Position numbers and translations under genes: made by a program. Under the pieces are notes generated by a model, which did no database searches, had not been told where the DNA came from, and was given only the letters and a program-made list of their open reading frames with translations. A stretch of 64,000 nt of DNA from Vulcanimicrobiota bacterium (GTDB taxonomy: Bacteria; Vulcanimicrobiota; Xenobia; Xenobiales; JADMJV01): assembly GCA_050250895.1 (NCBI GenBank), contig JBFWNU010000001.1, positions 1,416,008 to 1,480,007 of the forward strand. Reading direction: 5' to 3'. Positions within the stretch are counted from its first letter, which is position 1. Every line of letters begins with the position of its first letter. Positions 4,305 through 60,958 of the stretch are shown one piece after another.

Positions 4305-4796
4305 TTAGTGATAGTAGACCCAGGCGAAGCTGCCCAGGGCCGTGAGGGTGGCGGTCACCAGCGTGACCGCGAAGAAAAGGATGTTGACGGCCGTCAAGCC
4401 TAGATAGCGAGCCGCGTTCTTGAGTTCGTTCTTGCAGTTGGTGGTGAAGTCGCCCGGCAACTTCGAGGCGCGGTAGGCGGCCTGCAGCCCGAAGAGTGGC
4501 AAAATCCAGGCCCAGACCGGAGCGAACATGGCCACGATCGATAAGCCCACCACCAGAGAAGCGCGGCTGGTCACCCATTTGTCGACTTCGTGCTCGACCC
4601 CCTCGGGAGCGTCTTCGAGTTCGGCCATGCGAGGCGGGAAAGAGGCCTTGAAATAGAGCCACCACGAGGCGGCGAAGGTGGGCACGACCACCAGCATACC
4701 CCAGTAGCCAAGGCTGGTGGCCAGTTGGGTCGAGAGGATTGAAGCGGCCAGAAGCACCGAGCCGAGGACTAACCAGAGTACGCGCATGGTTGACAT
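4305..4796 (-). CDS. Hypothetical membrane protein (about 4 TM)
   Basis: Several hydrophobic segments; fills the gap divergent from malQ. Confidence 0.65.
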   Translation of the reverse strand: MSTMRVLWLVLGSVLLAASILSTQLATSLGYWGMLVVVPTFAASWWLYFKASFPPRMAELEDAPEGVEHEVDKWVTSRASLVVGLSIVAMFAPVWAWILPLFGLQAAYRASKLPGDFTTNCKNELKNAARYLGLTAVNILFFAVTLVTATLTALGSFAWVYYH

Positions 4797-4842
4797 TATA
4801 CACCTTGGAAGGAACCAGAATCAAAGCTTGGAATCGAGCAGC

Positions 4843-6342
<1,500 letters not shown>

Positions 6343-11338: not shown

Positions 11339-11372
11339 AGGTCTGCAGCCGGCCGTGCCGAATTCCAGAGCG

Positions 11373-45033: not shown

Positions 45034-45049
45034 GCTCGCTCCTTAGCCT

Positions 45050-46135
45050 CTACCGTCGTTTCTGTCTTCTCATCTGTCGTTTTCGCTTCAATTTTATGAC
45101 ATAGGCCAGAACTTCGGCCACCGCCTTGTAGAGCTCGGTGGGGATGGCCTGGCCCACTTCGCAGGCTCCGAACAGAGTTCGGGCCAGCTCGACGTTCTCT
45201 ACGATGGGCACATCGTGGTCTTCGGCCAGCACCTTGATCTGCTGGGCAATCAGCTTTTCGCCTTTGGCTACCACCGTGGGCACCGGCGATTCGTCCTTAT
45301 CGTATTTGAGCGCAATGGCCAGGTGGGTGGGGTTGGTGACCACCGCCGACGAGTTGGGAACCTCTTCCATCATGCGACCCTGCGAACCCTGGCGCATCAA
45401 CTGGCGCAGCTTGGCTTTGACCTGGGGGTTACCTTCGGTCTCTTTATACTCGTCTTTGAGTTCCTGGAAGCTCATCTTCATCTGCTTCATGAACTGCTTG
45501 TACTGAAAGGCGTAGTCGACCGCCGCGATGACGGTCATGCCGATCAAGACCTTCTTGACGATCTGCATGCAAATCGAAGTCACCAGTTGAGTGGTGGTGA
45601 GCAATTCCCAGTCGGCAGCCAGCATGAAGTTGGCCAGTTCTCCTTTGACCACCGACAGACAGATCCACCCCACGATCGTCAGCTTGGCGATCTGCTTGAA
45701 CAGCTCCATCAGCGACTTCATCGAGAAGATGCGCTTGAAGCCCTCGACCGGGTTGATCTTGTTGAGGGTGGGCTTGAGCGGCTCGAAGGTGAACAGCAGC
45801 TTGATCTGGGCCACGTTAGCGATGACTGCCATGATGAACACGCCCGCCAACAGGGGAGCCAGGGCAATAGCCACCGTGCCGACCCACCAGATCATCTCTG
45901 GCAGTAGCTCGCGCTCTTCGAAATTGTAATAAGGGATCTGCTCCCAGGCCTTTTTGGTAAAATCGGTGATGGTTTTCCACATGAAGCCACCGGCCGCATA
46001 CAGCATGCCGACGGCCGCCAGCAAGCCGGCGGTCGAAATGACCTCCTGGCTCTTCATCACCTGGCCTTTCTTGCGTTGCTCTTGAAGTTTATGTTCGGTT
46101 GGTTCTTCGGTTTTATCGCTATCCTGGCCACCCAA
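45050..46135 (-). CDS. flhB: Export switch protein
   Basis: KTEEPT, KETEGNP, intact NPTH autocleavage site. Confidence 0.97.
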   Translation of the reverse strand: MGGQDSDKTEEPTEHKLQEQRKKGQVMKSQEVISTAGLLAAVGMLYAAGGFMWKTITDFTKKAWEQIPYYNFEERELLPEMIWWVGTVAIALAPLLAGVFIMAVIANVAQIKLLFTFEPLKPTLNKINPVEGFKRIFSMKSLMELFKQIAKLTIVGWICLSVVKGELANFMLAADWELLTTTQLVTSICMQIVKKVLIGMTVIAAVDYAFQYKQFMKQMKMSFQELKDEYKETEGNPQVKAKLRQLMRQGSQGRMMEEVPNSSAVVTNPTHLAIALKYDKDESPVPTVVAKGEKLIAQQIKVLAEDHDVPIVENVELARTLFGACEVGQAIPTELYKAVAEVLAYVIKLKRKRQMRRQKRR

Positions 46136-46153
46136 AGCTGCCTCACCTCCTTT

Positions 46154-46954
46154 CTATTTTGGCGTTACTTCTCCGATAGTCCTGAAGACATCATCCAGAC
46201 AGATGTCGAACTGTTTTGTCAGCATGGTCAAAATGACCGGCAACCCGACCGAGAACATGGTCAAGCCGACGGCGATGTTGAGCGGGAAGCTCAACATGAA
46301 AACGTTCATTTGGGGGGCCACCCGGGCCAACAGCCCCAGCGCCACCTGAGTGATAAAGAGTGCGGCCAGCGCGGGCGAAGCGATCTGCAGGCCGATCACG
46401 AAGATCGAGGCGCTGATATCCACGAAGTGCGAGACCAGGTTTCCGTCGACGTTAAAGCCGGTCAGGGGCACGACCTCGAAGCTCTTGTAGATGGCGATCA
46501 TCAGCTGGTGATGGCCGTCGACCACGAGATAGAGCAGCATCGCGATGTAGAAATTCAGGCGCATCAGCAGTTTCGAGGCGCCGCCTGAGGAGGGGTCCAT
46601 GGAGGCGGCTACCGACAGACCCATCTGGATGTCCATCATTTCGCCGCCAAACTGAGCCGCCGCCATCACCGTAAACGAGGCGAACCCGATGGCCAGGCCC
46701 ACCACCAACTGAGTCAGGATGGCCAGAATAAAGCCCAGGGGCTCGGTGGGAAAATAGGCGGGAATGGGCAGATTGGGAAAGGCGACGATCGTCAACAGCG
46801 AGGCGATACCGATGCGCACCTTCGAGTTGTAGTGCTTACTACCGAAGATCGGGGCCTGAATCATCACCATCACGATGCGAGCAAAGGCTAGCAGCCCGCA
46901 CCCCAGTGCGATCCAGAGGACCTCGTTGATTTCGCGCTGTCCTGCCATGGCCAT
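46154..46954 (-). CDS. fliR: Export apparatus protein
   Basis: DIQMGL, DGHH, RVAPQMNVF. Confidence 0.95.
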   Translation of the reverse strand: MAMAGQREINEVLWIALGCGLLAFARIVMVMIQAPIFGSKHYNSKVRIGIASLLTIVAFPNLPIPAYFPTEPLGFILAILTQLVVGLAIGFASFTVMAAAQFGGEMMDIQMGLSVAASMDPSSGGASKLLMRLNFYIAMLLYLVVDGHHQLMIAIYKSFEVVPLTGFNVDGNLVSHFVDISASIFVIGLQIASPALAALFITQVALGLLARVAPQMNVFMLSFPLNIAVGLTMFSVGLPVILTMLTKQFDICLDDVFRTIGEVTPK

Positions 46955-46960
46955 CGTGCG

Positions 46961-47260
46961 TTACCCCGATGGTCCTATGCTGCCCACGTCGGTAAAGATG
47001 CGGATGGCGTAACTGCTGACCATGTTGGCAATCCAGGTTCCGCAGACCACCAGCGAGAGGAACGTGGCCACGATCTTGGGCACGAACGACAGGGTCTGTT
47101 CCTGTACCTGAGTCGTGGCTTGCAAGATACTGATAAATAGACCGACTGCCAGAGCCGACATCAACATGGGGGCAGAGAGGATCAAGATGAGATACAATGC
47201 CTCCGTACAGATCTCCATGATGTAGGCATCTGTGAACATCTCTTCAGCGAATATCAGCAT
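46961..47260 (-). CDS. fliQ: Export apparatus protein
   Basis: QATTQVQEQTLSFVPK. Confidence 0.96.
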   Translation of the reverse strand: MLIFAEEMFTDAYIMEICTEALYLILILSAPMLMSALAVGLFISILQATTQVQEQTLSFVPKIVATFLSLVVCGTWIANMVSSYAIRIFTDVGSIGPSG

Positions 47261-47305
47261 GTCGTTTCCTCCCTTCTTGAAAAATAGTCAACCAACGAGC
47301 CGCAC

Positions 47306-48106
47306 CTATGGAGGCATGTTCTCCATGTGGAAGCTCTTGACCAGGCCTTTGATGATCAGGTGCCAACCGTCGATCATGACGAACAGCAACAGTTTGAACG
47401 GCAAAGAGATGGTCATCGGGCTGAGCATGAACATACCCATCGACATCAGCACCGAGGCCACAATCATATCGATGACCAGAAATGGCAGATAGAGCAAGAA
47501 GCCGATCTCGAAGGCGGTCTTGATCTCGGAGAGCACGAAAGCCGGCAACAGAACGTAGATGGGCGCGTCGTTGCGCGACTCGACCTTCTGTTGAGACAGT
47601 TCCAGGAAGAGGATCAGGTCCTTGTCGCGGCACTGCAACAGCATGAACTGTCGGGGCGGGGTAGTCAGCTTGACCATGAACTCTGGCTGCTCCATGGTGC
47701 CGGCCAGATAGGGCTGGATGGCCTCCTTGTTCATCTTGATCCCGACCGGGGCCATGACGTACATGGTGATGAAGAGCGCCAGGCCCATCAACACCTGGGT
47801 AGACGGCACCTGTTGCGTGCCCAGGGCGGTGCGCAAGAAGCTCAGCGTGATGGTCGTCCTGATGAAGGCGGTGCTCATGATCAGGATGTACGGGGCCAAC
47901 GTCAAGGTGGTCAGGAAGAACATGACCTGCAGGAACGATGAGGTCTTGGCTCGTTCGTCCTGGTTGGCTCCGTCGATGGTGATCTTGGGCATCTCGATGC
48001 TGGGGAACTCGTTCTGGGCCTCGACCGGAGAGTAGGCGCCGATCAGACCCACCAGCACCACGGCCAGGAGGAGAATGCCCAACCAGCGGCCGGTTCGAGC
48101 GCTCAT
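47306..48106 (-). CDS. fliP: Export apparatus protein with signal peptide
   Basis: ALGTQQVP, PAFVLSEIKTAF, MGMFMLSP, LPFKLLLF. Confidence 0.97.
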   Translation of the reverse strand: MSARTGRWLGILLLAVVLVGLIGAYSPVEAQNEFPSIEMPKITIDGANQDERAKTSSFLQVMFFLTTLTLAPYILIMSTAFIRTTITLSFLRTALGTQQVPSTQVLMGLALFITMYVMAPVGIKMNKEAIQPYLAGTMEQPEFMVKLTTPPRQFMLLQCRDKDLILFLELSQQKVESRNDAPIYVLLPAFVLSEIKTAFEIGFLLYLPFLVIDMIVASVLMSMGMFMLSPMTISLPFKLLLFVMIDGWHLIIKGLVKSFHMENMPP

Positions 48107-48762
48107 TTCTTCACCCCCATGCCGGGTAGAATCGAGGCGTAGTGGCGCAAAATTTCTTTGTAAGACTGAGGCGGGTCGCCGGACTCGGTGGTGTCGACCT
48201 TGATCGGGCGAGCCGCTTCAAGCTCTTCGGTGGTCAGCTCGCAAAGGGGATTCATGGCGTGCTCGGTCATGCCCACCACCAGGATCTTGCCGGCCACCTC
48301 GACCAGGGAGATGGAATGGGTATGGCTCAGGCGCTGGGTCTCGAGCACTTTGAGGAGGGGCTCACTGGCGCTGGACTTGCCGAAGACCCCGGGGGCGATG
48401 GTGGCCAGGCCCTTCAGAGTGCCCCACACCAGCAGGCAGGTGAGGATGAGCGGCAGCATCAAAGCCCGCAGGTCGGCCAGAAAGCCGTCGTTGGGGGCCC
48501 AATCCGGATCGACTCTGGGGTTCCAGGGGTGGGCCTGACCATAGCTGGGGCCCACCTGATGCTGACTGGGGTTGAGGGCCTCACCGAAGGTTACCGGTCG
48601 CTTGTCGGTCTGGCTGTGAGCCGGCGGTGAGGCGGGCGCGTCTTTGGGCCGCGGCGTGATCCGGGCCAGGGTGAACAGCAGCAGGATGAGCATGCAGGCC
48701 ATGGCGCCCGCCACCAACGGAGAGTTACGCCCAGCCTTGTTATAACCCACACCCTGCATCAA
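48103..48762 (-). CDS. fliO: FliO-like export gate chaperone
   Basis: TM, LKVLETQRL, SISLVEVAGKILVVG; position between fliN and fliP. Confidence 0.8.
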   Translation of the reverse strand: MMQGVGYNKAGRNSPLVAGAMACMLILLLFTLARITPRPKDAPASPPAHSQTDKRPVTFGEALNPSQHQVGPSYGQAHPWNPRVDPDWAPNDGFLADLRALMLPLILTCLLVWGTLKGLATIAPGVFGKSSASEPLLKVLETQRLSHTHSISLVEVAGKILVVGMTEHAMNPLCELTTEELEAARPIKVDTTESGDPPQSYKEILRHYASILPGMGVKK

Positions 48763-49031
48763 TTCATCAATTCGGTGATCCGAACTCCGTAATTTCCCTC
48801 GATCTCTACTACTTCGCCCCTGGCGATGAGGGTCCCGTTGACCACCAGGTCGACGGGGTCGTTGCCGTCTTTGTCGAGTTCGATCACCGCTCCCTCACCG
48901 AATTTCAACACGTCACGCACGCTCTTGGTGGTTCGCCCCATCTCGGCTTCGACGATAAAAGGCACGTCGTAAAGGATGGTAAGATCTTCCCTTTTCTTGG
49001 GCCGTTGAGGCTGTGCGTTGTAATCTTCCAC
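48759..49031 (-). CDS. fliN: C-ring SPOA protein, second copy
   Basis: DVPF..EMGRT, GAVIELDK, ARGEVV, YGVRITE. Confidence 0.93.
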   Translation of the reverse strand: MEDYNAQPQRPKKREDLTILYDVPFIVEAEMGRTTKSVRDVLKFGEGAVIELDKDGNDPVDLVVNGTLIARGEVVEIEGNYGVRITELMN

Positions 49032-49333
49032 TATTTCACAATCTCCGTGATGCGAACGCCATACTGACCATCGATCTCGACCACCTCGCCCCGAGCGATG
49101 GCCTTATTGTTGACCAGAATGTCGACCGGCTCACCGATTTCCTTGTCGAGTTCGACCACCGAGCCCACCTGCAGGCGCAGAATATCCCGCACCAGGCGGC
49201 GGGTCTTGCCCAACTCAGCCTGGACTACCAGAGCGACGTCTTTGAGCAGATCGATCGTGTTGGCGTTGGCCCCCTCGGCCACGCTGCCCTCGAGCTGGCC
49301 GAATTGAACCGCTCGGGGTCCTTGATCACTCAT
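49031..49333 (-). CDS. fliN: C-ring SPOA protein, first copy
   Basis: IDLLKDV, ELGKT, GSVVELDK, ARGEVV. Confidence 0.95.
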   Translation of the reverse strand: MSDQGPRAVQFGQLEGSVAEGANANTIDLLKDVALVVQAELGKTRRLVRDILRLQVGSVVELDKEIGEPVDILVNNKAIARGEVVEIDGQYGVRITEIVK

Positions 49334-50309
49334 CGTATTCTTCGTCTCCCTCTTGCAGAACTCGGTTGATCTTGGCAGCCAGCCGACCGTCTTTGATGCC
49401 GGGCTGGCCGAGAAACTTGGTCTTGTTGTTGACCTTGATTCGCAACGGGTCGCGAATCTCTGAATCCAGGCGGATGGTGTCGCCTACCTCGATGGTTAGC
49501 AGCTCTTGAAAGAGCAGTTCGGCGCGGCCCAAACTGACAGAAACCGGCACTTTGGCATTGTGGATGTGCTCGGGAAAGATGATTTTATCATCTTTGGGCG
49601 CCTGGAAGGTGGTGGTCAGCATGAACTCGTCAAACGACCGCTTGGGGATCATCTCTTTGAGATAGCGGAAAGGCACGCAGACGTTGATCAGGCCTTGAGC
49701 CTGGGCCACATCGACCTGGAAGGCGGTCACCACCATCGTCTCGGAGGGGGCGCAGATATAGACGGCATTGGGGTTGAACTCGAGGCTTTGAAACTGGGCC
49801 TCGACCTGGCCGACATCTTTCCAGGCGTCGCCAAAAGCCGATAGCATACGGCCCAGCGGTTTCTTCAGGATGGCCTTCTCGAGATCGGTAAAATAGGGTC
49901 GCAGCTCTTCTCGCGGGGGAGCGCCCTTGCCACCCATCAAGCGCTCGAAGATGGCAAAGGAGAGGTCGAAATCGATGTCGATGAAGCCCGAGGTGTTGTC
50001 ATTGAGGCGGAAGACCAGCACCGGGGTGGGCTCGGGCAAGGAATTCAGGTAGGAGTGGTAGGGAAAGGTCTTGAGCTTGATCAGCTCCATCTGGAAACGC
50101 GACTGGAGCAGGGGAGCCAACTGGGTGACCACCGCCTCGGAAAAGCCCACGAAAATCTTCTCCAGAAAGCGGTTCTGGTCTGAGGTGAATTTTTCGGTCT
50201 GACGAAAGTCAAAGGTGCTGGCACCCTGAAACCGCTGCCGCTGAGCTGCTCTCATCGCTTGGTCGAATCTTCCGCCATTTCCCAATTTCTCTCGGCCCTC
50301 CACGGGCAA
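49326..50309 (-). CDS. fliM: C-ring protein lacking the CheY-binding peptide; exact start uncertain
   Basis: FDFR..KF, LMGGKG, FTDLE, EFNP, SPOA C-terminus; no LSQxEIDALL. Confidence 0.93.
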   Translation of the reverse strand: MPVEGREKLGNGGRFDQAMRAAQRQRFQGASTFDFRQTEKFTSDQNRFLEKIFVGFSEAVVTQLAPLLQSRFQMELIKLKTFPYHSYLNSLPEPTPVLVFRLNDNTSGFIDIDFDLSFAIFERLMGGKGAPPREELRPYFTDLEKAILKKPLGRMLSAFGDAWKDVGQVEAQFQSLEFNPNAVYICAPSETMVVTAFQVDVAQAQGLINVCVPFRYLKEMIPKRSFDEFMLTTTFQAPKDDKIIFPEHIHNAKVPVSVSLGRAELLFQELLTIEVGDTIRLDSEIRDPLRIKVNNKTKFLGQPGIKDGRLAAKINRVLQEGDEEYDE

Positions 50310-50429
50310 TCGGACCCCCGTCCGCTACCCTACGACTCCCCCATTCGTCCGGATTCGTCGAGGGAGCGAGGTACCCTGGTTTTAACTCTCGCTTTTGGGC
50401 CGACAGCGAGACCAGGTTAGAGTCAGAAG

Positions 50430-50479
50430 GCCATCCGATGAGGATGGCTCTCAAGAAGCGGGCGCCCGAGGCGCCCGCT
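50430..50479 (-). terminator. Tandem hairpins after the flgE-like gene
   Basis: AGCGGGCGCC/GGCGCCCGCT stem (50457-50479) with a short U tail, then GCCATCC/GGATGGC (50430-50448). Confidence 0.7.
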
Positions 50480-50492
50480 CGCCTTGGGAAGA

Positions 50493-51308
50493 CTATCGAA
50501 CCAGACCGAGAGCGGACTGGGTGAGCTTGTCCATAGCCCGGAAGGAGGCCATGTTGGCTTCGAAATTCTGCTTGGTCATGCCGATAGCAGCACCTTCTTG
50601 CATGAAGTCGACGTTAGAGAGTTCGAGGCTGCCGGGAGCGATGCTGCCCAGCGCACCCTGGCCGGCCACCCCGATGACGGCGCCGCCCGAATCGGCCGAC
50701 TCGACAAAGCTGGTGGTTCCCGAGCGCTCGAGCGACCCGGCGTTGGCGAATGAGGCCACGGCGGTTTGATAGATGGGAGTGGTGGTGGTGATCTGCTGCC
50801 CCGTGACGGGGTCGGTCATGGTGGCTTCACCATAGAGCTTACCGGTGTCGTCGAAGTGGAAGCCAGTGTATTTTCCGCCGTAAAGATTGGTGTTGGGATC
50901 GAGAGTCAACTCGATCGGCTTGGAGTCGCCCGAGATGTTGCCCTGCGAGTCGAGGGGGAAGCCCATCACCGACTTGCCCATCGCGTCTTTGAGCGAGCCG
51001 TCTTGCCAGGTGAAGCGACCGTCGCGGGTGTAGTGGTTCTGGAAGCCGTCGTTGACCACGAAGAACCCCTGACCGTTGATGGCCAGGTTGGTGTTGGTTT
51101 GGGTTTTGAAAATCTGGCCCTGATCGAAGGAGACGTTGTTTTTCTTGACTTTGGCGCCGCCAGCCAGGGTCGAACTCATAATGTCGTTGAACTGGACCAC
51201 TTCGGCCTTGTAGCCGGGAGTAAACTGGTTCTTGATGTTCTCGAATCGGCTCTGCAGAATCTCCTGGTTTTGAGCCATGTTGTTGGCAGCGTAGTTAAAA
51301 TCAAACAT
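50493..51308 (-). CDS. Short hook/distal-rod family axial protein (FlgE/FlgG-like, no D2 domain)
   Basis: TPGYK, NLAINGQGFF, YTRDGRF, LELSNVD; 271 aa; occupies the flgE position. Confidence 0.9.
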   Translation of the reverse strand: MFDFNYAANNMAQNQEILQSRFENIKNQFTPGYKAEVVQFNDIMSSTLAGGAKVKKNNVSFDQGQIFKTQTNTNLAINGQGFFVVNDGFQNHYTRDGRFTWQDGSLKDAMGKSVMGFPLDSQGNISGDSKPIELTLDPNTNLYGGKYTGFHFDDTGKLYGEATMTDPVTGQQITTTTPIYQTAVASFANAGSLERSGTTSFVESADSGGAVIGVAGQGALGSIAPGSLELSNVDFMQEGAAIGMTKQNFEANMASFRAMDKLTQSALGLVR

Positions 51309-51383
51309 TCGAAATGGTCCTCTCCTTATTTCAACCCTGTGGTGCGGGGCTGTCCCGCTGTTTCTTTCCTACAAAATTCCTCG

Positions 51384-51443
51384 ATTTTAGAGTAACCGAG
51401 GGCAGTTACATGGGCGTTACCGGCCTGTTAACGAAAAGTTAAC
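51384..51443 (-). promoter_or_regulatory. Internal phased-repeat promoter of the flgE-like gene
   Basis: Minus strand GTTAAC, GTTAAC, GGTAAC, TGTAAC starting at 51443, 51432, 51421, 51410; -10 TACTCT at 51394 overlapping TAAAAT at 51389. Confidence 0.75.
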
Positions 51444-51452
51444 CTACTCGAC

Positions 51453-52388
51453 TCAAACAACCTCCTCGACCAGCTTGACTCGCATCGCTTCCAGGCGAAT
51501 GCCCTTGGCTTTCACCTGGGAGAGAAGTTCTTCTTCGCTCTCTTCAAGCAGCTCGCGAGTGGCCCGCGAAGTGGTCTGGAACTCGGCCCGAATACCCTTT
51601 TCGTCGTGAACAAGCGAAATTTTGACATCGCCGAGGTACTCGGGATTGAGCTTGAGGTTGAGTTCGGTCTGGTTGGCCAGATTGCGTACCTCGACATGCG
51701 CCAGGATCTGATTCATCAGGTTCTGGCGCTGCTCAGCTCGCTGGGCTTCGCCCGTCTTGCCGGCTTCCCGGGTCTTCATCGCCTCTTCGGCCAGCATCTG
51801 CTCGAGACGACCACCGGAGTTCGTATTGCCCGAGGCGGCCAGCTGCTCGTTGCTGGTCTTTTGCTCTTTGCCGTCGGCCTCGCGCAGCAGCGAGTCGATC
51901 AGGCGCGAAAGCTGGTTGCGGTCGGTCTGATTGGTCAGCTGGGTCAACTGCGAGTAGGACAGGTCCTTGAGGTTGAGGCCCTTGCCCAGCAGCATTTTCT
52001 GCAGCTCGGAGAGGCCCACCTTGTCCATCGAAAATTCGCCCAGCTTGAAGGCCTGGCGTTCGGCCGTGGACATCGTAGAAGGGTCCTTGTAGGCCAGCGT
52101 CTCGAGATAGGCCTGGAGCTTGGCCCCACCCTTGAGTTGCTCGGGCTTGGCCTCGACTTTGGCTTCGGCCTTAGCAGCTTCTTTGGCGTCTTCTTTGCCT
52201 TTCTTGGCTTTGTCTTCTTTGTCGGGCGCAGCCTTGTCGTCGATGACGCCTTCTTTGCCGCCGCCGCCCGATTGGACCGCGTCATTCATTGCCGAGCTGA
52301 AAGCCCCGGCGTCGCCCTTGTCGGTTTTCTTGCTCGTCTCACTGGCTTTGGTCGTGCCCATGAGTGAGCCGATGACTGGGTTGTCCAC
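51453..52388 (-). CDS. fliK: Length-control ruler protein
   Basis: Disordered charged N-terminus; C-terminal T3S4 motif LKLNPEYLGDVKISL. Confidence 0.85.
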   Translation of the reverse strand: MDNPVIGSLMGTTKASETSKKTDKGDAGAFSSAMNDAVQSGGGGKEGVIDDKAAPDKEDKAKKGKEDAKEAAKAEAKVEAKPEQLKGGAKLQAYLETLAYKDPSTMSTAERQAFKLGEFSMDKVGLSELQKMLLGKGLNLKDLSYSQLTQLTNQTDRNQLSRLIDSLLREADGKEQKTSNEQLAASGNTNSGGRLEQMLAEEAMKTREAGKTGEAQRAEQRQNLMNQILAHVEVRNLANQTELNLKLNPEYLGDVKISLVHDEKGIRAEFQTTSRATRELLEESEEELLSQVKAKGIRLEAMRVKLVEEVV

Positions 52389-52396
52389 CGTGCCTC

Positions 52397-53041
52397 CTAG
52401 ATGCTCTGTCCGTGGTTGGAACTGTAGTAACGATAGTTGTCGAGAACCTTGGCTACGTAATCTTGCGTTTCTTGATAGGGAGGAACGCCGCCGTGCTTTT
52501 CGACTGCACCGGGACCGGCGTTATAACCGGCGATGACTTTGGTCAGGTTGCCGTCGAAGCGGTCCATCAATTGGCGCAGATAGAGGGTGCCGCCCATGAT
52601 GTTCTGATAGGGATCGTAGGAGTCGGTCACTCCCAGCCCGGCAGCCGTCTCGGGCATCAATTGCATCAAGCCCTGGGCGCCTACATAAGAGGTGGCCTTG
52701 GGGTTATAGGCCGACTCTTGCTTGATGACCGAGCGAATCAGGGCCTGATCCACACCGTGTTTCTTCGAGGCCTCGGCGATCATGCCATCAAAATCCTTCG
52801 AGTCGCCATTCCAACGGTTGGCGTTGAGTTTGGCCGGGCCCGAACGAGCGTCATAGCGCTGATCGTCGGCCAGAGAATTGACCAGGCTCTCGAAGGTCAC
52901 CCCTTCGTTGCCGGCCGGCGCGCCGCTGGTCAGATTGGTCTGGCCGGCGTTGGACTGAAATCCGGCTCGCCCTCCCTCGAGTTTCGAATCGAGTTGGGCG
53001 ATCTTCTTCTCGATCGCGGCCATTCTATTGAATACTGACAC
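52397..53041 (-). CDS. SLT lytic transglycosylase without Sec signal
   Basis: QESAYNP, GAQGLMQLMPET, YNAGPG, ETQDYV. Confidence 0.95.
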   Translation of the reverse strand: MSVFNRMAAIEKKIAQLDSKLEGGRAGFQSNAGQTNLTSGAPAGNEGVTFESLVNSLADDQRYDARSGPAKLNANRWNGDSKDFDGMIAEASKKHGVDQALIRSVIKQESAYNPKATSYVGAQGLMQLMPETAAGLGVTDSYDPYQNIMGGTLYLRQLMDRFDGNLTKVIAGYNAGPGAVEKHGGVPPYQETQDYVAKVLDNYRYYSSNHGQSI

Positions 53042-53052
53042 GATGTTCCTCC

Positions 53053-53526
53053 CTATCGCTCTTCGGCTGCTTCGCGTGCCTCACGGGCAAACTTGATGGT
53101 CGCTAGTTCGTCGATCAGACGGGCCTCGACAGCGTCCATCTCGGCCACCCATTCCTCCTGGCACTTTTCCTTGTGTTTTTCGTAGACTTTCTTCTCTTGA
53201 GCCGCCTTCAGTAGAGCTTTCCTCTGCTCTATGATTCTAATGGCTAGCTCTCGTAGACGCAACTCCTGGCTTTTTATTTTGTTCTCTAGATTCTTGATGT
53301 GGGCGGGGTAGAAGCGTAGTTCTTCCATGTTGAGGCTGCCGCTCAGGTGCTTGGTTTTGAGCGTCAGGCGGACATCCCTCAACGTCTGTTCGAGCTGGGC
53401 TTTGACCTGCTTTTCGTAAGCCTCTTGCTCGAGCAGCTTGGCCAGCTTTTCTTTCTCTTCTTCCTCTCGCTTGACTTTGAACTCGAGTACCTTCTCGAGT
53501 CGATACTTGAACTTTTTCGGCGGCAC
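53053..53526 (-). CDS. fliJ: Export ATPase stalk
   Basis: FKYRLEKVL, coiled coil, IDELA; directly after fliI. Confidence 0.88.
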   Translation of the reverse strand: MPPKKFKYRLEKVLEFKVKREEEEKEKLAKLLEQEAYEKQVKAQLEQTLRDVRLTLKTKHLSGSLNMEELRFYPAHIKNLENKIKSQELRLRELAIRIIEQRKALLKAAQEKKVYEKHKEKCQEEWVAEMDAVEARLIDELATIKFAREAREAAEER

Positions 53527-54845
53527 TAGTCTTTGAAGATCCTTCTCAGGTGATCCATCATTTCGTCAAAGGTGCTTTGCTCGTGGATGCCTTGTTTGAG
53601 AAAGGCGGCAATGGCGTCGTTCTTGGCGATAGCATAGTCGACCTTGGGGTTGGAGCCGCGCTGGTAGGCGCCGATGTTGATCAGGTCTTCGTTCTCGCGG
53701 TAGGTGGCCATGGCGTTGCGCAGGCGCCCGGCCAGCTCTTGATGCTCTTTGGTGGCGACTTCGGTAAATACACGAGAGACCGACTGCAGCACGTCCACGG
53801 CCGGATACATATTCTTGTGGGCGATCTTACGCGACAAGACGATGTGGCCGTCGAGAATACCACGAACCGCATCGGCGATCGGCTCGTTCATGTCGTCGCC
53901 GTCGACGAGCACGGTGTAGACAGCGGTGATCGTTCCCTTGGGGGAGGTGCCGGCCCGCTCCATCAGCTTCGGCAAGAGGGCAAAGCAAGAAGGCGTATAG
54001 CCTTTGGTAGCGGGAGGCTCCCCGATGGCCAGTCCGACTTCGCGCTGAGCCATGGCAAAACGCGTCACCGAGTCCATCATCAGCATCACGTTGTAACCCT
54101 GGTCGCGGAAGAACTCAGCCACCGCCGTGCCTGTGTAGGCGGCCTTGAGGCGCACCAGGGCAGGCGTGTCGGAGGTGGCCACCGCCACCACCGAGCGCTT
54201 CATGCCTTCTTCGCCCAGGTCGCGCTCGAGAAAGTCACGCAACTCACGGCCACGCTCGCCGATGAGGGCCAGCACCGCAATGTCGGTTTCGGAAAAGCGC
54301 GCGATCATGGACAGGGTGGTCGATTTACCGACGCCCGAACCGGCGAAGATTCCTACACGTTGGCCGCGGCCGAAGGTCAGGGTCGAGTCCAGCACGCGAA
54401 TGCCCATCGAGATGCGCTCTTCGATGCGCGGTCGGGTGATCGGGTTGGGTGGCGTGTTGTAGATGGGATACTCCTCTTCGCAGTCGAGGGGACCCAGGCC
54501 ATCGATCGGTTCGCCCAGACCGTCGAGTACGCGCCCCAAGAGTCCCCAGCCCACCTTCACCATGAGCGGCTTGCCCGTCGAGCGAACCTCGCATCCCGGG
54601 CCGATGCCACCCATCTCGCCCAGGGGCATGAGCTGGACCCGGTTGGCTTTGAAGCCTACCACCTCGGACCGGATGGAGCGTCCCTCCTGGTCATAAATGT
54701 AGCATAGCTCACCCAGTCGCACGGCCGGTCCCTCGGACTCGATGGTCAGGCCGATGACCTGCACCACTCTGCCGTGCTGCTTGATAGTCTGGATGCGAGG
54801 CAATATCTTTTCGTAGCGGCTAAAATCGACGGCTAACTCAGCCAT
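53526..54845 (-). CDS. fliI: Export ATPase
   Basis: AGSGVGKST, GERGRE, DSVTRFA, LDGHIVLSR; start at MAELAVDF. Confidence 0.97.
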   Translation of the reverse strand: MAELAVDFSRYEKILPRIQTIKQHGRVVQVIGLTIESEGPAVRLGELCYIYDQEGRSIRSEVVGFKANRVQLMPLGEMGGIGPGCEVRSTGKPLMVKVGWGLLGRVLDGLGEPIDGLGPLDCEEEYPIYNTPPNPITRPRIEERISMGIRVLDSTLTFGRGQRVGIFAGSGVGKSTTLSMIARFSETDIAVLALIGERGRELRDFLERDLGEEGMKRSVVAVATSDTPALVRLKAAYTGTAVAEFFRDQGYNVMLMMDSVTRFAMAQREVGLAIGEPPATKGYTPSCFALLPKLMERAGTSPKGTITAVYTVLVDGDDMNEPIADAVRGILDGHIVLSRKIAHKNMYPAVDVLQSVSRVFTEVATKEHQELAGRLRNAMATYRENEDLINIGAYQRGSNPKVDYAIAKNDAIAAFLKQGIHEQSTFDEMMDHLRRIFKD

Positions 54846-56049
54846 TCTCTTCCTCCTGCGAGAACTCGGGCTCGGCCTCGAACTCGGGCTCGGGGGTGAA
54901 TTCTTCTTCGGGTGCAAAATCGGGCTCTTGAGGGGTAACCTCTTCGAGCCCCTGGAAGTCGGGGTCGCCGGGGACCTCGACCGGTTCGGTGGCGGCCTGG
55001 TTGGCGAGTTCTTCTTCGCGCAGTTTGGCCATCTCTTCCATGCCGTGGCGAATCGCATCGAGCTGAGTATGTAATCTGGCGTCGATGTTGCCCAGGTTGG
55101 TCTCGATGGTGCAGCCGCCCGGATCGATGGTCGGATCGGCCACCACCTCAAAGCTCTTGAGCCCTTCGACCATCCGCTCGAAGCTGGCGCGATGATCGCG
55201 TACGATCTGCACATCTTGCGGGTTGACCCGGATCGAGACCTCCTCTCGGTCCTTGATGGCGCCCAGTGCCTGGCGCACGATGGCTAGAATGACCTCGGGG
55301 TCGACCTTGATGGCTTCGCCTAGCACCCGCTCGGCGATCTTGACCGCCAACCGGGCGAGTTCGGGCTCGACCGTGGCCACGATGGCCCGCCGGGCCCGCA
55401 CGGCCTGAACATACATATCCTTGGCCTGGGCAATCCGCTCGACGAACTCGCCCACCGAGGCGTTGTAGCCCTGCTGATGGCCGGCCTGTAGGCCTTCTTG
55501 ATAACCACGCTCGCGAGCCTGCTCTTCGGCCTGCTGGGCCGCCTGCTGGGCCTGCGTGGCCGTCTGCTGCATGTAGTGCTGGGCCTGGGCCTGAGCTTCT
55601 TGCAGCATCTGCTGGGCTTTCATCCGGGCCTGCTCGAGGATCTGCTCGTCGATGGGCGGACCCTTCTGCACCTCTTCTTCGGGCTCTTCCAGGTCTTCGT
55701 CGTCAAACTCGAGTTCGATGGGATCGGGCTGGGGTGGGGCCGGCGGCCGATCGCCGCCCACGATCAGCGTCTGGGTCAGCGGATTGAGGGTGCTCGGCTT
55801 GGTCTCGACCCTCGGCTTGCCACCGATGACACGGCCGGTGCTCTCGACCCTGGGCGGGCTGACCAGCGTCTGCTCGAAGGGAGGCTCCGGCTCGGGTTCG
55901 GGTTCTTCGTCGTCGCGCTCGAGCTGGGTGGGATGCATGGGAGCAAAGCTCTGCCCCTCGGCGTTGTCACGGTGCCGATACAGGTTCGACGAGGGAGCGG
56001 CGGGTTTTTGCTCTACGCTTTCTCCCTTTTTGCGCTTGATGAGTGCCAC
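54838..56049 (-). CDS. fliH: ATPase regulator with long acidic Pro-rich extensions
   Basis: GYQEGLQAGHQQG repeats, IRVNPQD, GGCTIETNLGNIDA. Confidence 0.9.
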   Translation of the reverse strand: MALIKRKKGESVEQKPAAPSSNLYRHRDNAEGQSFAPMHPTQLERDDEEPEPEPEPPFEQTLVSPPRVESTGRVIGGKPRVETKPSTLNPLTQTLIVGGDRPPAPPQPDPIELEFDDEDLEEPEEEVQKGPPIDEQILEQARMKAQQMLQEAQAQAQHYMQQTATQAQQAAQQAEEQARERGYQEGLQAGHQQGYNASVGEFVERIAQAKDMYVQAVRARRAIVATVEPELARLAVKIAERVLGEAIKVDPEVILAIVRQALGAIKDREEVSIRVNPQDVQIVRDHRASFERMVEGLKSFEVVADPTIDPGGCTIETNLGNIDARLHTQLDAIRHGMEEMAKLREEELANQAATEPVEVPGDPDFQGLEEVTPQEPDFAPEEEFTPEPEFEAEPEFSQEEENG

Positions 56050-56058
56050 AAGCGGCTC

Positions 56059-57060
56059 CTATTTGAACTTGATCTTGCCCAGGGTCACCAACCCCCTGAG
56101 GATGTTGCGAATCTGCTGTTGGGCGGCCTTGGTTTCGTCGAAGGGCACCTGGCCCAGACTCTCGACATCGTCGCGCAGAGCCTTGGCCACCTCGGGCGAG
56201 AGGAAGCGATAAATGCGCTCGGCCAGGTCCTTGTTGGCACCCTTGAGGGCCAGCACCAGGTCGCGAAAGTCGGTCAACCGCAGCACCTGCTGCAGCGAGT
56301 TGTCGTCAATATTGTTGAGGTCTTCGAAGTCACACAGCTTGGTCTTGATGTCGCTGGCCAGCCGCGGGCTCTTCTGAGTCAGCCCGGAGAGCACGCTGGC
56401 TTCGGTGCCGCGGTCCGCCTGGTTGAGAATCTGCAGCAACGTTTCCTTGCCATCGCTATGGCTTTGGAAGCCCTCCTCGAGCGCCTTGTGCAGGCGGCCC
56501 TCGAGAATCTTCTCGAGTTCAGAGACTACCTCGCTCGAAACGTGGCCAAGCTCGGCCAACCGCTTGGCCACCTCGGTCTGGGTGGTCGGCGTGAGTTCGC
56601 CGAGCACCGCCGAGGCCTGGTTGGAGTCTAGATAAGACAAGACCACGGCGATGGTCTGCGGGTGCTCTTTGCGGATCAGATGGATCAGTTGGCGCGGATC
56701 GACTTTGCGTAAGAAGCCCAGCGGACGATTGGCCGCCGCACCGGGCGGGCCGCCCATGGTCGGCGGCATCGACTTGCTGCCCATCATGGGCTGGGTGAAA
56801 GCTGCGTGGGCCGGAGCGGTCGGCGCCGAGCCGCCTCCGCCGGAGGACTGAAGAAATTCTTCGATGACTTGAGCTCGGATCTCGGGGGAGATCTGAGGCA
56901 GCTTCGAGATCTCGAGAGTGATGGCCTGAACTTCTTCGGGGCCGAGTTCTCGAAACAGTTGCGCCGAGACCTCGGGAGGGAGCGACATCAGCAAGATAGC
57001 CGCTTTCTGCTTAGGAGGCAGGTTGCTGGTCGAAATGGCCTTCCACTTTCCTTTCTGCAT
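56059..57060 (-). CDS. fliG: Rotor/C-ring protein with degenerate torque helix
   Basis: KAAILL, EHPQ, LALKG; NMSxR replaced by FLSPE, GPVR by GQVP, MFxF by LCDF. Confidence 0.95.
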   Translation of the reverse strand: MQKGKWKAISTSNLPPKQKAAILLMSLPPEVSAQLFRELGPEEVQAITLEISKLPQISPEIRAQVIEEFLQSSGGGGSAPTAPAHAAFTQPMMGSKSMPPTMGGPPGAAANRPLGFLRKVDPRQLIHLIRKEHPQTIAVVLSYLDSNQASAVLGELTPTTQTEVAKRLAELGHVSSEVVSELEKILEGRLHKALEEGFQSHSDGKETLLQILNQADRGTEASVLSGLTQKSPRLASDIKTKLCDFEDLNNIDDNSLQQVLRLTDFRDLVLALKGANKDLAERIYRFLSPEVAKALRDDVESLGQVPFDETKAAQQQIRNILRGLVTLGKIKFK

Positions 57061-57116
57061 GGTTGCGCCCCGGGACAGGCCCGAGGCGCAATTCCATCAT
57101 ATCGAAGTCTGGTCGA

Positions 57117-58790
57117 CTAGGACAGCCAGGTGCTCTTGAGCATCTCGGCCACTTTGGTGGGACGCTCTTTGGCCAGCTGTTCTAGCTGCTCGTTGGTGTT
57201 GACTTTGGTCTCGCCAGCGCTCGGAGGAGCGGTCGACTTGCCCGACTTCTCGTTGAGCAGGTCGGCGATGTCGGTCGAGGTGGCGCCCGAGGTGCCGCCC
57301 AGGACCAGTTTGCCCTGGTTGACCTGGACCGAGTGCTGCTTGACCATGAAGGTCAGAATCAGACCCAGGAAGACCAGCGCCACAGCCGTGCCAGCGATGG
57401 TCAGGTGGCGAGCGGTCAAGCCGCCGCCGCCGGCCGTCTCGCCGAAGCCGGGGGGAGGGGTGATGGCCAGATCAGTGCCACCAACCGCCGGACGATAGAT
57501 AGGCATGCTCTCGACCACGACGCTGTCGCCGCGGGCTTCGTCGATACCGATAGCGTTGCGCACGATACCGGCAATCTTGGCCACCTGGTCTTCTTTGAGG
57601 TTGTCAACGACCACCGAAGCGGTCTTGCGTTTGACGCGATAACTCTTGTCTACGGTGCGGGACACGGTCTTGCTGGTGTCGATCTTGACCGACTCGACCT
57701 CGTGCACATAGTTGTTGTTGCTGGTCCCGCCGGATGAAGCCTGTTCGACATCGGTGGACAACTGGCGGGCGTTGGAGCTGCCGCCGGCGTTAGGATCCTT
57801 CGAGTAGCTCTCGACCTTCTTCTGGCGGCCCACTACGACGGTGCCCTGGTCAGCCGGTCCGCCCACCACCGAACGGGTTACTTCGTTTTGGGAGAAGTCG
57901 AGTTCGGCATTCACGGTGGCCACGGCTTTGCCCGGGCCGAGAACTTTGTCGAGCTGGTCTTGAACCTTTTGGGTTAGCTCTTTTTCAATACCCAGCTGGG
58001 TCTCTTGTTGGGTGCCAGCGACTTGCGCGCCGTCGGGGCCCTGAGGCAACTGGGCGGTCAGGTCCATTCCCATGGTGTCCACGATTTTGACGTGCTCGGG
58101 CAAGAGTTCAGGCACCGAGAAAGAGACCAGATGGACGATGCCAGCGATCTGCTCGCGGGTCAGCTTGGCGCTCGGCTCGAGTTTGACCAGCACCGTGGCG
58201 GTGGTCGGGCGCGAGTCGTCGCGGAAGTAGGTCTGCTCGGGAATGGCCAGCTTGATGTAAGCGTCGGCCACGCCTTCAACCTGGCGAACGGTTTCGGTCA
58301 GTTCGCCCTCCAGCATCCGCTGGCGTAAAGCTTTCTGTTCGGCCTGAGTCTTGGCCTGAATGCCACCTTCGGGGGTATTGTAGGGGGTGGTGATAGCGTG
58401 CCGGGGCAGGCCTTTGGCAGCCAGGGCCACCTGGGCACGAGCTTTGGTTTTGGGAGAGACCAGAATGCCGTCGAGCAAGTCCACATTGTGGGGGATGCCC
58501 AGGCTGGTGAGTTCCATCGCCACGGCCTTGGTGTCTTCGTCGTTAAGCTTCGTGGTGTAGAGAGGCACGTAGGCGTTGGCCGTGTTGGAGTGGACCACGA
58601 AGGCCGTTCCCAAAATGGCGATCACCAGAAATGCCGAAAGAGCGATCTTGGTACCTTTGCCAAGTCCCTCCCACATTTCTTTGATTTTTCCCAGGGGCCC
58701 GCCTCCGCCGGCTGGACCTTTCCCGATTGCGGAGCGTCCTGTTGCCAGGCGACTGCCGCTTTTCATCCCCGTTTGGATCCCGGTGGCCAT
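57117..58790 (-). CDS. fliF: MS-ring protein
   Basis: Two TMs, LEGEL, VNAELDF, AIGIDEARGD. Confidence 0.95.
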   Translation of the reverse strand: MATGIQTGMKSGSRLATGRSAIGKGPAGGGGPLGKIKEMWEGLGKGTKIALSAFLVIAILGTAFVVHSNTANAYVPLYTTKLNDEDTKAVAMELTSLGIPHNVDLLDGILVSPKTKARAQVALAAKGLPRHAITTPYNTPEGGIQAKTQAEQKALRQRMLEGELTETVRQVEGVADAYIKLAIPEQTYFRDDSRPTTATVLVKLEPSAKLTREQIAGIVHLVSFSVPELLPEHVKIVDTMGMDLTAQLPQGPDGAQVAGTQQETQLGIEKELTQKVQDQLDKVLGPGKAVATVNAELDFSQNEVTRSVVGGPADQGTVVVGRQKKVESYSKDPNAGGSSNARQLSTDVEQASSGGTSNNNYVHEVESVKIDTSKTVSRTVDKSYRVKRKTASVVVDNLKEDQVAKIAGIVRNAIGIDEARGDSVVVESMPIYRPAVGGTDLAITPPPGFGETAGGGGLTARHLTIAGTAVALVFLGLILTFMVKQHSVQVNQGKLVLGGTSGATSTDIADLLNEKSGKSTAPPSAGETKVNTNEQLEQLAKERPTKVAEMLKSTWLS

Positions 58791-58865
58791 AGTTTCTCCT
58801 CTCCTACCTACCGGCGCTCTCTCTCTGTTTTAGCGAGCGCCGCTCCTTACCCCTCGCGAACTTTC

Positions 58866-59216
58866 TTAGAGCTGCATCTGGAACAGCTGAGTGGTGGCTT
58901 GGGCCATCTTGCCCACCACGGTGGTGGTCAGCTTCATCATCACCTCGGCCTTGGCGCCGGCGATGGTCATCTCGTGCAGGCCGTCCATGTTGCCGCTCAA
59001 CAGGTTGTTGGTCGACTTGATGGAGCCGTCGATGGTCGTGTTGACGGTGTTGAGGCTCTCAGCCAGCACGGCGCCGAAGGCTTTACCGTTTTCTTCGGAC
59101 TGACCGGGCTGCTCGATCATTTTCGGCATGCCGATGCCGGAGATCGGGGAACCGGTGGTTCCGATGCCGCTTACGCCGGAAGTGATACCCTGAATGGATT
59201 GAAAGGGGGACTGCAT
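58866..59216 (-). CDS. fliE: Basal body adaptor
   Basis: FGAVL, LHEMTIAGAKAE, C-terminal MQL. Confidence 0.9.
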   Translation of the reverse strand: MQSPFQSIQGITSGVSGIGTTGSPISGIGMPKMIEQPGQSEENGKAFGAVLAESLNTVNTTIDGSIKSTNNLLSGNMDGLHEMTIAGAKAEVMMKLTTTVVGKMAQATTQLFQMQL

Positions 59217-59227
59217 AATCTTACTCC

Positions 59228-59710
59228 TTAGCCTTTACCGATCTCGAGAGCTTTCATCGCCATCGCTTTCGCCGATTCGATGGTGGTTGCGTTAGCCTCG
59301 TAGGCGCGACTGGCGGCCATCATCGAGGTCATTTCTTGAATGATGTTGACGTTGGGCATCGCGACGTAGCCTTTGCGATCACCCTCCTTTTCGGCGTTGG
59401 GATTGGTGGGGTCGTAGACCCAGCGGAAGTCGCTATTGTCTTCCATAATCCCGTTGACGCCGACACCGCCGCCCGAGAAGTTGACTTTGTTGTTGAAGTC
59501 GAACTCGCCGTCCATCGAGGCAGTGGTGAACGCCTGGTCGAACATCTCGGCCTGCTTGGCATTGATCACGGCAACCTGACGGCGGTAAGGATCTCCGTCT
59601 TCGGTTTTCGAGGTGTTCGCGTTGGCGATGTTGTTGGACACCACATCCATACGGAACTGCTCGGCGCGCATTCCGCTGGCTGCAATATCGAAGGTCTGGA
59701 AGAATTTCAT
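59228..59710 (-). CDS. flgC: Proximal rod protein
   Basis: SNNIANANT, PYRRQ, GYVAMPNV, ASRAYEAN. Confidence 0.97.
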   Translation of the reverse strand: MKFFQTFDIAASGMRAEQFRMDVVSNNIANANTSKTEDGDPYRRQVAVINAKQAEMFDQAFTTASMDGEFDFNNKVNFSGGGVGVNGIMEDNSDFRWVYDPTNPNAEKEGDRKGYVAMPNVNIIQEMTSMMAASRAYEANATTIESAKAMAMKALEIGKG

Positions 59711-59729
59711 CTAGTCTGCCTCTCTCGTC

Positions 59730-60149
59730 TTATCGACCGCTGTTTTCGACAACCCACTTCAGGGAGCCGTAGATGCCCGAGATCTTCGAAGCCAGAGCGT
59801 TATACATAATCTGGTTCTTGGCCAGACTGGCCATCTCGGAGTTGACATCCACCTTACCGCCCACATCTTCGATGGTGGGCTGCAGGCTGGCTTTGGTCCA
59901 ACCGCCGGCGCCATCAATGGCGAACTCGGGGTCGACTACTCCGGCGGGGCTGAAATCGGTGTCAGAGCCGGCGGCCTCGTCATTGTCCATCGCTTCGCGC
60001 AGATGATTCTCGAAAGCAACGGTCTGGGCTGTGTAGCCCTCGGTATTGACATTGGCCATGTTGTTCGAGATGACTTGCTGGCGCAGCGTGGCCGCACCGA
60101 TAGCCTTCTCTAACAGCGTTGTGTCAACAAGTTGAAACGGCTTCCCCAA
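59730..60149 (-). CDS. flgB: Proximal rod protein
   Basis: RQQVISNNMANVNTEGY, VDVNSEM, NQIMY; AGGAGG RBS and TTG start. Confidence 0.95.
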   Translation of the reverse strand: MGKPFQLVDTTLLEKAIGAATLRQQVISNNMANVNTEGYTAQTVAFENHLREAMDNDEAAGSDTDFSPAGVVDPEFAIDGAGGWTKASLQPTIEDVGGKVDVNSEMASLAKNQIMYNALASKISGIYGSLKWVVENSGR

Positions 60150-60241
60150 CGTTTCGCTCCTCCTAGTAATCGGTCAGGTCGTCATTCGACCCTGTTTATT
60201 TCGGCGATGTCCAAATAAATTTCGGCTCTTTTCGCACTCTC

Positions 60242-60502: not shown

Positions 60503-60958
60503 TTGATGCCTTCAGGACCGGGCGGCCCCACCGGGCCGATTCCCGGCGCGAACATACCCCTAACAGAAGAGTGGTTCAAAGCTCAGAAGAAGCTCATGAA
60601 AGAGGGGGGGATCAAGGAGGCCACCGAGTCCTCGGATGTCTTCACTCCCAGCGAAGCGGCCCAGAAGCTTCCCTCCACCGAAGACGAGCGCTTTCTGGCC
60701 AGCGTCAAGCCCGAGATCTTGTCGCTCGACCCTGACTCCGAGACGTTTCTGGACGAGGCCACCGAGAAGCTGGTTGGCTCGGTGATCGAGCAAGAATACG
60801 GCGAACACATGGCGCGCAACCCGGCCTATCCGCAAATGCAAGAGAAGATTACCCGGACCATCCTCGAGAATCCCCAGTATCGCGAGATGGTGGCCGACTT
60901 TCTCGACATCATGCTCATGACGGCCCCTCAGGCCGAAGAAGCTCCGTCCCAGGAATAG
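60503..60958 (+). CDS. Small acidic hypothetical protein divergent from flgB
   Basis: Gly/Pro-rich N-terminus, helical acidic C-terminus. Confidence 0.75.
   Translation: MMPSGPGGPTGPIPGANIPLTEEWFKAQKKLMKEGGIKEATESSDVFTPSEAAQKLPSTEDERFLASVKPEILSLDPDSETFLDEATEKLVGSVIEQEYGEHMARNPAYPQMQEKITRTILENPQYREMVADFLDIMLMTAPQAEEAPSQE

Follow-up and report, generated by a model that had tools for sequence, protein, structure and literature searches.

The window analysed here, a 64,000-nucleotide stretch of the genome of a Vulcanimicrobiota bacterium (GenBank assembly GCA_050250895.1, contig JBFWNU010000001.1), carries a fliG gene (positions 56059-57060, minus strand) whose 333-residue product is a clade-specific variant of the flagellar protein FliG. 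We put at about 0.68 the probability that this FliG serves as the adaptor linking MS ring and C ring in a flagellar-type III export apparatus with a rod that has ceased to work as a rotary motor; the machine as a whole probably does not rotate. The gene lies in a module of 20 genes that is inherited across a class-level group of uncultured bacteria labelled Candidatus (Ca.) Xenobia, UBP9, Eremiobacterota or Vulcanimicrobiota, and most of those genomes have the module as their only such system, with no MotAB, flagellin, FlgD, FlgK-type proteins or P ring to go with it. The initial annotation of this DNA had likewise taken FliG for a scaffold and not a rotor; the support for that view comes from comparative genomics on metagenome-assembled genomes (MAGs), namely from carriers that lack a stator and from the FliM and MotA sequences.

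We aligned the protein with E. coli K-12 FliG (L011:3881-4876, from NC_000913.3) using MAFFT and with T. maritima FliG (1lkv) using HMMER; both alignments gave the same mapping, and translation of the individual codons returned every residue that the initial annotation had named. Five charged residues of E. coli FliG (K264, R281, D288, D289 and R297) are said to make up the set of torque charges of Lloyd and Blair. This set is incomplete in the window FliG, where two members are replaced: E290 (56191-56193, minus strand, as are all codons given here) occupies the R281 site at the N-terminal end of the torque helix, and P306 (56143-56145) the R297 site. The other three are retained in this copy as K273 (K264; 56242-56244) and D297-D298 (D288/D289; 56167-56172), leaving acidic residues at both ends of the torque helix. 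The MFxF hinge of torque-generating FliG, which serves in switching and is typically MF(L/V)F, reads LCDF (L242-C243-D244-F245; 56326-56337), with a cysteine in place of the hinge aromatic. The EHPQ motif that contacts FliM (E132-H133-P134-Q135; 56656-56667) is preserved, and R167 is kept as well, which completes the EHPQ/R contact motif. Residue 307 (56140-56142), directly after P306, is F in the window FliG and W in 118 of 120 orthologs.

In working motors, according to PMC7564593, R90 and E98 of MotA pair with D289 and R281 of FliG. A preprint (bioRxiv 10.1101/2024.04.30.591856) places R281 and D288/D289 at opposite ends of the torque helix, where they create a periodic plus-to-minus pattern atop the C ring, and describes the MFLF motif as bracing FliG_CC, the C-terminal subdomain. 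Since R281 and R297 are both replaced here and the D288 position is relaxed across the clade, the torque helix no longer has this plus-to-minus pattern of charges.

The identity of the gene as fliG is clear. The open reading frame (ORF) scores 233.1 bits against the NCBIfam equivalog TIGR00207, above the cut-off of 226.7, and contains all three Pfam domains (FliG_M, 112 bits; FliG_C, 109 bits; FliG_N, 98.8 bits). It is placed between fliF (57117-58790) and fliH (54838-56049), as the canonical FliG position requires, and its best solved relatives are the FliG proteins of T. maritima, Aquifex and Salmonella. An AlphaFold2 (AF2) model built from 149 input sequences has a mean predicted local distance difference test (pLDDT) value of 87.2, with confident M and C domains; the structure prediction of the torque helix that the initial annotation had called for returned a formed helix at residues 289-301 with a pLDDT of about 98. 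All top matches of the model in a Foldseek search of the PDB were FliG. Its C domain superposes on T. maritima FliG_C (1qc7) with a root-mean-square deviation (rmsd) of 1.3 A over 91 columns and on MotAB-bound FliG_C (8ucs_H) with 1.7 A over 82 columns, and its N domain superposes on 5tdy_D with 0.9 A over 61 columns. The predicted fold is thus intact, with the change confined to the chemistry of the named sites.

The N-terminal domain is the place where the architecture itself differs. As the initial annotation had proposed, a low-complexity linker (residues 74-111; 56728-56841, minus strand) stands in place of the distal half of FliG_N and the helix between the N and M domains: the FliG_N match is limited to profile positions 2-61 of 104, and the AF2 model shows four N-terminal helices at residues 16-73 followed by no secondary structure at 74-114, with pLDDT below 50 at residues 83-87 and 92-105. 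Across 120 orthologs the linker spans 34-62 residues and is composed of G (23%), S (13%), A (11%), P (10%) and T (10%), among others. In canonical motors, the C-terminal peptide of the MS-ring protein FliF binds FliG_N, and this peptide is present in the fliF product of the window (57117-58790, minus strand; assigned by Pfam and sequence inspection). A complex prediction for FliG 1-115 with FliF 500-557 scored 0.50, with the best control at 0.00, a weak result that we do not count as evidence. The mark that it passes was passed by 58 of 80 solved complexes and by 2 of 110 mismatched pairs, yet only 7 of the 80 solved complexes scored 0.60 or less, as did both of the mismatched pairs that passed. 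The partner had a pLDDT of 58 or more and the runs shared at least 84% of contacts, but the predictor's memory of 5tdy may explain the pass.

The substitutions are not peculiar to this genome. Among the 120 closest database proteins (58-100% identity), 76 have E and 43 have D at site 290, with a gap in the remaining one; at site 306, 77 have P and 38 have S. Hinge residues are nearly uniform (L in 117, C in 119, D or E in 120, F in 120), as are the basic residue at 273 (K or R in 119) and the acidic one at 298 (D or E in 119). Position 297, the D288 site, is variable across the clade with an entropy of 2.26 bits. For comparison we used 138 representatives of other FliG clusters, excluding the first 13 rows, that is, the query and its 12 best matches (clade members, fragments and one canonical FliG). 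In this set the R281 site holds R in 123 proteins and an acidic residue in 4, the R297 site holds R in 96 and K in 19, and nearly all hinges read [ML]FxF; at the C243 position, F occurs in 126 of 133 canonical FliGs versus C in 119 of 120 orthologs. Alignment with other FliGs and with orthologs, a check along the lines that the initial annotation had asked for, finds the changes fixed in the clade (an acid at 290 in 119 of 120) and rare elsewhere (4 of 138).

Named MAG records tell the same story without exception: 52 distinct genes (57 rows, with five loci fetched twice) all have [LM][CH][DE]F at the hinge, an acid at 290 and no R or K at 306, and they carry the labels Ca. Xenobia, UBP9, Vulcanimicrobiota, Ca. 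Eremiobacteraeota, Ca. Bruticola, and rumen and gut bins. In a FastTree phylogeny of 157 FliG proteins, all signature-bearing proteins fall into one clade of 51 tips (support 0.65), six of which show variant residues. Per-site entropy separates the two groups further: N277, S279, R281 and E/D288 are nearly fixed in canonical FliGs, positions 286, 288 and 297 are free to vary in the clade, and K239, K241, C243, D244, Y284 and W307 are newly fixed there. Collectively, the FliG changes are a fixed signature of the clade, attributable neither to chance nor to decay.

Window-type FliG is also found in duplicated or extended arrangements. Some relatives have two tandem copies, and in genus g4 an extra ORF of about 284-317 residues between fliF and fliG resembles FliG in its N and M parts alone. 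Loci noted for these arrangements are G032:C41:9207-10202 and 10734-11717, L052:1486-2493 and 2998-4020, and G016:C87:26138-26536.

The fliG gene belongs to a module of 20 genes (42925-60149, minus strand) defined by Pfam and profile matches. Read from 60149 downwards, its order is flgB, flgC, fliE, fliF, fliG, fliH, fliI, fliJ, SLT (a lytic transglycosylase gene), fliK, a short flgE-like gene, fliM, fliN, fliN, fliO, fliP, fliQ, fliR, flhB and flhA. The flanks are unrelated to flagella and encode an Mrp/ParA-type ATPase, RNase D, a PAS histidine kinase and purine catabolism genes. No motA, motB, flgD, flgK, flgL, fliD, fliS or flagellin gene lies within the module. The fliM product (49326-50309, minus strand) keeps the GGxG contact with FliG and lacks the N-terminal LSQxEIDALL peptide that binds CheY-P; together with its orthologs in G021 and G033, which lack the peptide too, it begins about 25 residues later than E. 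coli FliM, in which the peptide is present. The FliM of the module cannot take CheY-P by the usual peptide. At the level of the system, the features of a rotary flagellum were not found with the module: it has no co-encoded stator, no hook cap, hook-filament junction or flagellin, and no CheY-P peptide on FliM.

Several parts of an export apparatus are kept. FlhB has its NPTH site and FliI its P-loop (AGSGVGKST), and the genome encodes FliK, all rod proteins, a rod-binding protein of the FlgJ type and a sigma-28-like factor belonging to the system; from these we infer that the apparatus still exports. Some of these genes lie in a second conserved small module elsewhere, which comprises a FliK-like protein, an FlhB_C-like protein, FlgF, FlgG, the rod-binding FlgJ-type protein, the sigma-28-like factor and a tetratricopeptide repeat (TPR) protein. 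The sole hook-like gene of the main module (50493-51308, minus strand) encodes a 271-residue FlgE/F/G-type protein that is rod-sized, adjoins fliK and is accompanied by no flgD. FliH (54838-56049, minus strand) has 403 residues, with the Pfam FliH domain confined to residues 211-332 and long acidic ends rich in Pro and Glu. Divergent from flgB lies an ORF of 151 residues (60503-60958, plus strand) that matched no Pfam family in a profile search; G021 carries a homolog of it in the corresponding place.

A flagellum in decay would begin by losing its filament, hook and stator genes, and the module could on that account be the relic of a lost flagellum, with FliG changing by neutral drift. We consider this scarcely credible. 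The identical 20 genes recur in identical order in G021, G023 and G033, so that four genomes, drawn from three genera, have the whole set intact and in synteny; FliG is 58-83% identical over 39 genomes with no internal stops; and the changed FliG residues are themselves fixed. In one study, four metatranscriptome runs yielded contigs that are 97-98% identical to flgB-flgC-fliE (window 58862-60200) and to the 3' end of fliF (57132-57272), which indicates a close relative in that sample type and also speaks against a relic, but only weakly, as DNA can be present in such RNA libraries. None of the contigs from these four runs covers fliG.

The strongest argument for loss of rotation is the distribution of motility genes among relatives. 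We compiled the source genome (G000) and 40 related genomes from 10 genera, with genome sizes of 1.9-9.5 Mb. All are MAGs, for which absence from a bin is no proof of absence, and all are kin, so that counts do not represent independent events. Window-type FliG is present in 39 of the 41, and a second, canonical FliG in eight (G000, G006, G007, G008, G009, G010, G018 and G040), which are spread over five of the 10 genera. Flagellin and FlgD occur in exactly these eight two-FliG genomes and FlgI in seven of them, in no other genome of the table. MotB_plug matches were found in the eight plus G035 and G039, and the two additional matches were rejected as flagellar MotB since they represent ZorB of Zorya defence loci. 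These loci comprise ZorA-ZorB-ZorC in G035 (L138, G035:C182) and ZorA-ZorB on a short contig in G039 (L139, G039:C449).

Among the 31 genomes with window-type FliG alone, flagellin, flagellar MotB, FlgD and FlgI were each found in 0 of 31, and 22 of these genomes have a completeness of 90% or more. In each of five small single-system genomes the Flg_bbr_C proteins number exactly four, namely FlgC, FlgF, FlgG and the short FlgE-like protein, which leaves neither FlgK nor a hook protein of full size. Chemotaxis genes do not separate the two groups, since CheW occurs in 28 of the 41 genomes, many of them single-system.

The rule also holds for five more distant carriers (G041-G045; 46-51% identity). 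A canonical second FliG accompanies flagellin and MotB in G041, G042 and G043. G045, with a single FliP, lacks both flagellin and MotB. G044 was examined as a counter-example, its sole FliG being of the window type in the presence of flagellin and MotB; it was rejected as such because it has two FliP genes, the second of which implies a second system that is incompletely assembled. The initial annotation had named the same substitutions in motile relatives as grounds against its reading. Every examined carrier of flagellin or MotB with a window-type FliG (eight of the 41 relatives and G041-G044) turned out to have a second flagellar set, represented by a canonical FliG or, in G044, by the second FliP only.

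The source genome itself (9.5 Mb) illustrates this coexistence. Its second flagellar gene set, hereafter set B, is scattered on contig C1. Set-B FliG is 31% identical to the window FliG and has an MFVF hinge, R at the R281 site, E-D at the next two charged positions and R at the R297 site; set-B FliM carries the CheY-P peptide (MSAN-LSQLEIDAL). Set B further includes flagellin, an FlgL-like protein, FlgD, FlgI and two MotA/MotB pairs, both located in set-B regions, and it is set B that supplies motility in the source genome. E98 of MotA, the partner of R281, is kept in both MotA proteins, and R90 is kept in one and replaced by S in the other (L004:1099-1968; G000:C1:577464-578333). A cognate MotA with reversed charges, the second finding that would have counted against a scaffold, was sought in both MotA proteins of this genome, and no compensating reversal matching E290 was found.

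The presence of both systems in one genome, and of one MotA with S at the R90 site, might be taken to mean that in two-system genomes the window-type FliG co-assembles with the canonical motor or regulates it, for example as a brake or ring modifier. We regard this as highly improbable: the protein is encoded together with its own FliF, FliM and FliN in a separate module that is complete, and it is the sole FliG found in 31 of its 39 carrier genomes.

Several observations weigh against an export adaptor without rotation. The 31 concordant genomes are kin and not 31 independent events, every one is a MAG, and for six of them completeness is below 80%. The clade still shows strong conservation along the torque helix (K273, P289, R296, D298 and V305), and new invariant residues have appeared (K239, K241, C243 and W307); this combination suggests that FliG_C keeps a specific role, possibly the binding of a partner. 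The full C domain is kept, unlike in non-flagellar type III secretion systems (NF-T3SS), which have no FliG, and this is not expected of a pure scaffold. Finally, four of the five small genomes encode a 5:2 motor of the ExbB/ExbD type, which is a possible driver.

One alternative is that FliG is still a rotor, served by a stator that the Pfam families MotA_ExbB and MotB_plug do not flag as flagellar, either ExbB with two ExbD-like proteins or another family. A more acidic torque helix, with an acid at 290 in 119 of 120 orthologs and K273 and D298 conserved, would suit such a stator, and the sole MotA_ExbB match in the small single-system genomes is indeed a 217-residue ExbB followed by two ExbD-like genes (four of five genomes). 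That locus, however, is unlinked to the flagellar cluster, encodes no peptidoglycan-binding domain of the MotB type and was not found in G026, which is 97% complete. There would also be nothing to rotate (flagellin 0/31, FlgD 0/31, FlgK-type proteins in 0 of the five small genomes), and FliM lacks the CheY input. An alternative stator is accordingly an unlikely explanation.

We favour instead a static C ring, in which FliG would link FliF to FliM and FliN around a working type III export gate. This is the most economical account because the torque charges are changed and stator, filament and CheY input are all missing. Once torque generation had been lost, R281 and R297 would have been free to change, and the replacing residues may have been selected as helix caps: S-P-[E/D] at 288-290 marks the start of helix 289-301, and P or S at 306 precedes helix 307-326. 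S, P and E/D residues have helix-capping preferences. As the replacing residues are typical of helix caps, they may serve fold stability and not a partner.

What such a machine would export is suggested by genes linked to flhA. In G021 and G033 (L018, L021), flhA is followed by three genes without a Pfam family, encoding proteins of about 100, 87-92 and 250-320 residues, the last of which ends in the same domain as the 87-92-residue protein. In the source genome the trio lies at G000:C1:871174-873023 (L137:3175-3471, 3647-3910 and 4056-5024), with four further copies of the small gene elsewhere. The family of about 87 residues is very conserved and has only 42 database relatives, all unnamed. 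It is present in 35 of the 41 relatives in 1-8 copies, with three or more copies in 31 of the 35, and absent from all six genomes of genus g2; in 15 genomes one copy shares a contig with fliG at a distance of 15-21 kb, which places it just past flhA. On this pattern, the small multi-copy proteins may be what the machine exports.

An AF2 monomer of the small protein is one long helix, a shape that cannot discriminate between families. By language-model features, the nearest named clusters are HrpA/HrpE pilins at 0.90 (172 and 177 shared features) and 0.88. The small proteins resemble these Hrp pilins in being of about 85 residues, all-helical and multi-copy, but they have no significant sequence match to them: the gathering score of PF09589 (HrpA_pilin) was not reached, and the three of 41 members that match do so at noise level (best E-value 4e-4), with unrelated families scoring equally. 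We therefore put forward only as a tentative idea that the module is an independent and ancient conversion of a flagellum into a non-rotating type III machine that builds a needle or pilus. Such a machine would have kept the rod and the FliG-FliM-FliN C ring and would polymerise the lineage-specific, single-helix subunit of about 87 residues in place of hook and filament, with FliG turned from torque receiver into static platform.

Other flagellar fragments are scattered through the source genome. Eight extra proteins contain the cytoplasmic domain of FlhA only (FHIPEP profile from about 260-460 to about 470-657) and no membrane part; they are encoded at L033:605-3610(+), L034:782-2167(-), L035:806-1936(-), L036:938-2245(-), L037:830-1930(-), L038:833-2320(+), L039:721-2244(-) and L040:612-2213(+). 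Fusions include a 1001-residue protein of FliG_N and FlhA_C, a helix-turn-helix domain with FlhA_C, and FlhB_C with FlhA_C. Relatives, too, have long ORFs with FliG_N-like segments inside. A third FliF-like protein of 527 residues (L027:1480-3063, G000:C2) and a stand-alone FliG_N-like protein of 137 residues (L028:2307-2720, G000:C2) are located away from both flagellar sets.

Compared with canonical FliG of E. coli, Salmonella and T. maritima, the window-type protein shares the three-domain fold, EHPQ/R, the K264 and D289 equivalents, the position between fliF and fliH and the torque helix. It differs in R281 to E/D, R297 to P/S, the relaxed D288 site, the LC[DE]F hinge and the disordered linker of 34-62 residues that replaces the distal half of FliG_N and the N-M helix. 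At the level of the whole machine, Buchnera aphidicola offers a parallel. PMC3459982 and PMC8109811 describe its reduced flagellar basal bodies, for which protein secretion has been proposed, and note flagella-like loci in species thought to be non-flagellate; Buchnera too keeps the flagellar type III secretion system (T3SS) and basal body without flagellin. Buchnera, however, is a reduced endosymbiont, whereas the module described here is ancient and occurs in free-living and gut lineages with non-reduced genomes of 1.9-9.5 Mb. Unlike that of Buchnera, it can occur side by side with a full canonical flagellum, is missing the hook cap as well, and is marked by fixed changes in FliG and FliM (the FliG charges of Buchnera were not compared).

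Injectisomes, according to PMC3459982, derive from the flagellum by loss of motility parts (NF-T3SS, with an intermediate in Myxococcales). They lack FliG, FliE, FlgB and FlgC; the module has all four (a secretin was not searched for), and by the criteria of that paper its gene content identifies it as flagellar-type and not as an injectisome. We found no description of the module in the literature, although the supplements of PMC9259500, which applied TXSSCAN to related genomes, may list it.

Non-swimming machines derived from flagella are the accepted route to injectisomes, and few natural intermediates are known. The module is conserved over a class-level lineage, stands beside a normal flagellum in some genomes and retains FliG; these traits make it a natural experiment in which FliG residues needed for torque only can be told from those needed for assembly or export. 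It is also a target for asking what role a C ring without a stator plays in never-cultured bacteria of the gut, rumen, wastewater and sea. If the small flhA-linked proteins are indeed its substrate, the module would be a second, independent needle-like T3SS.

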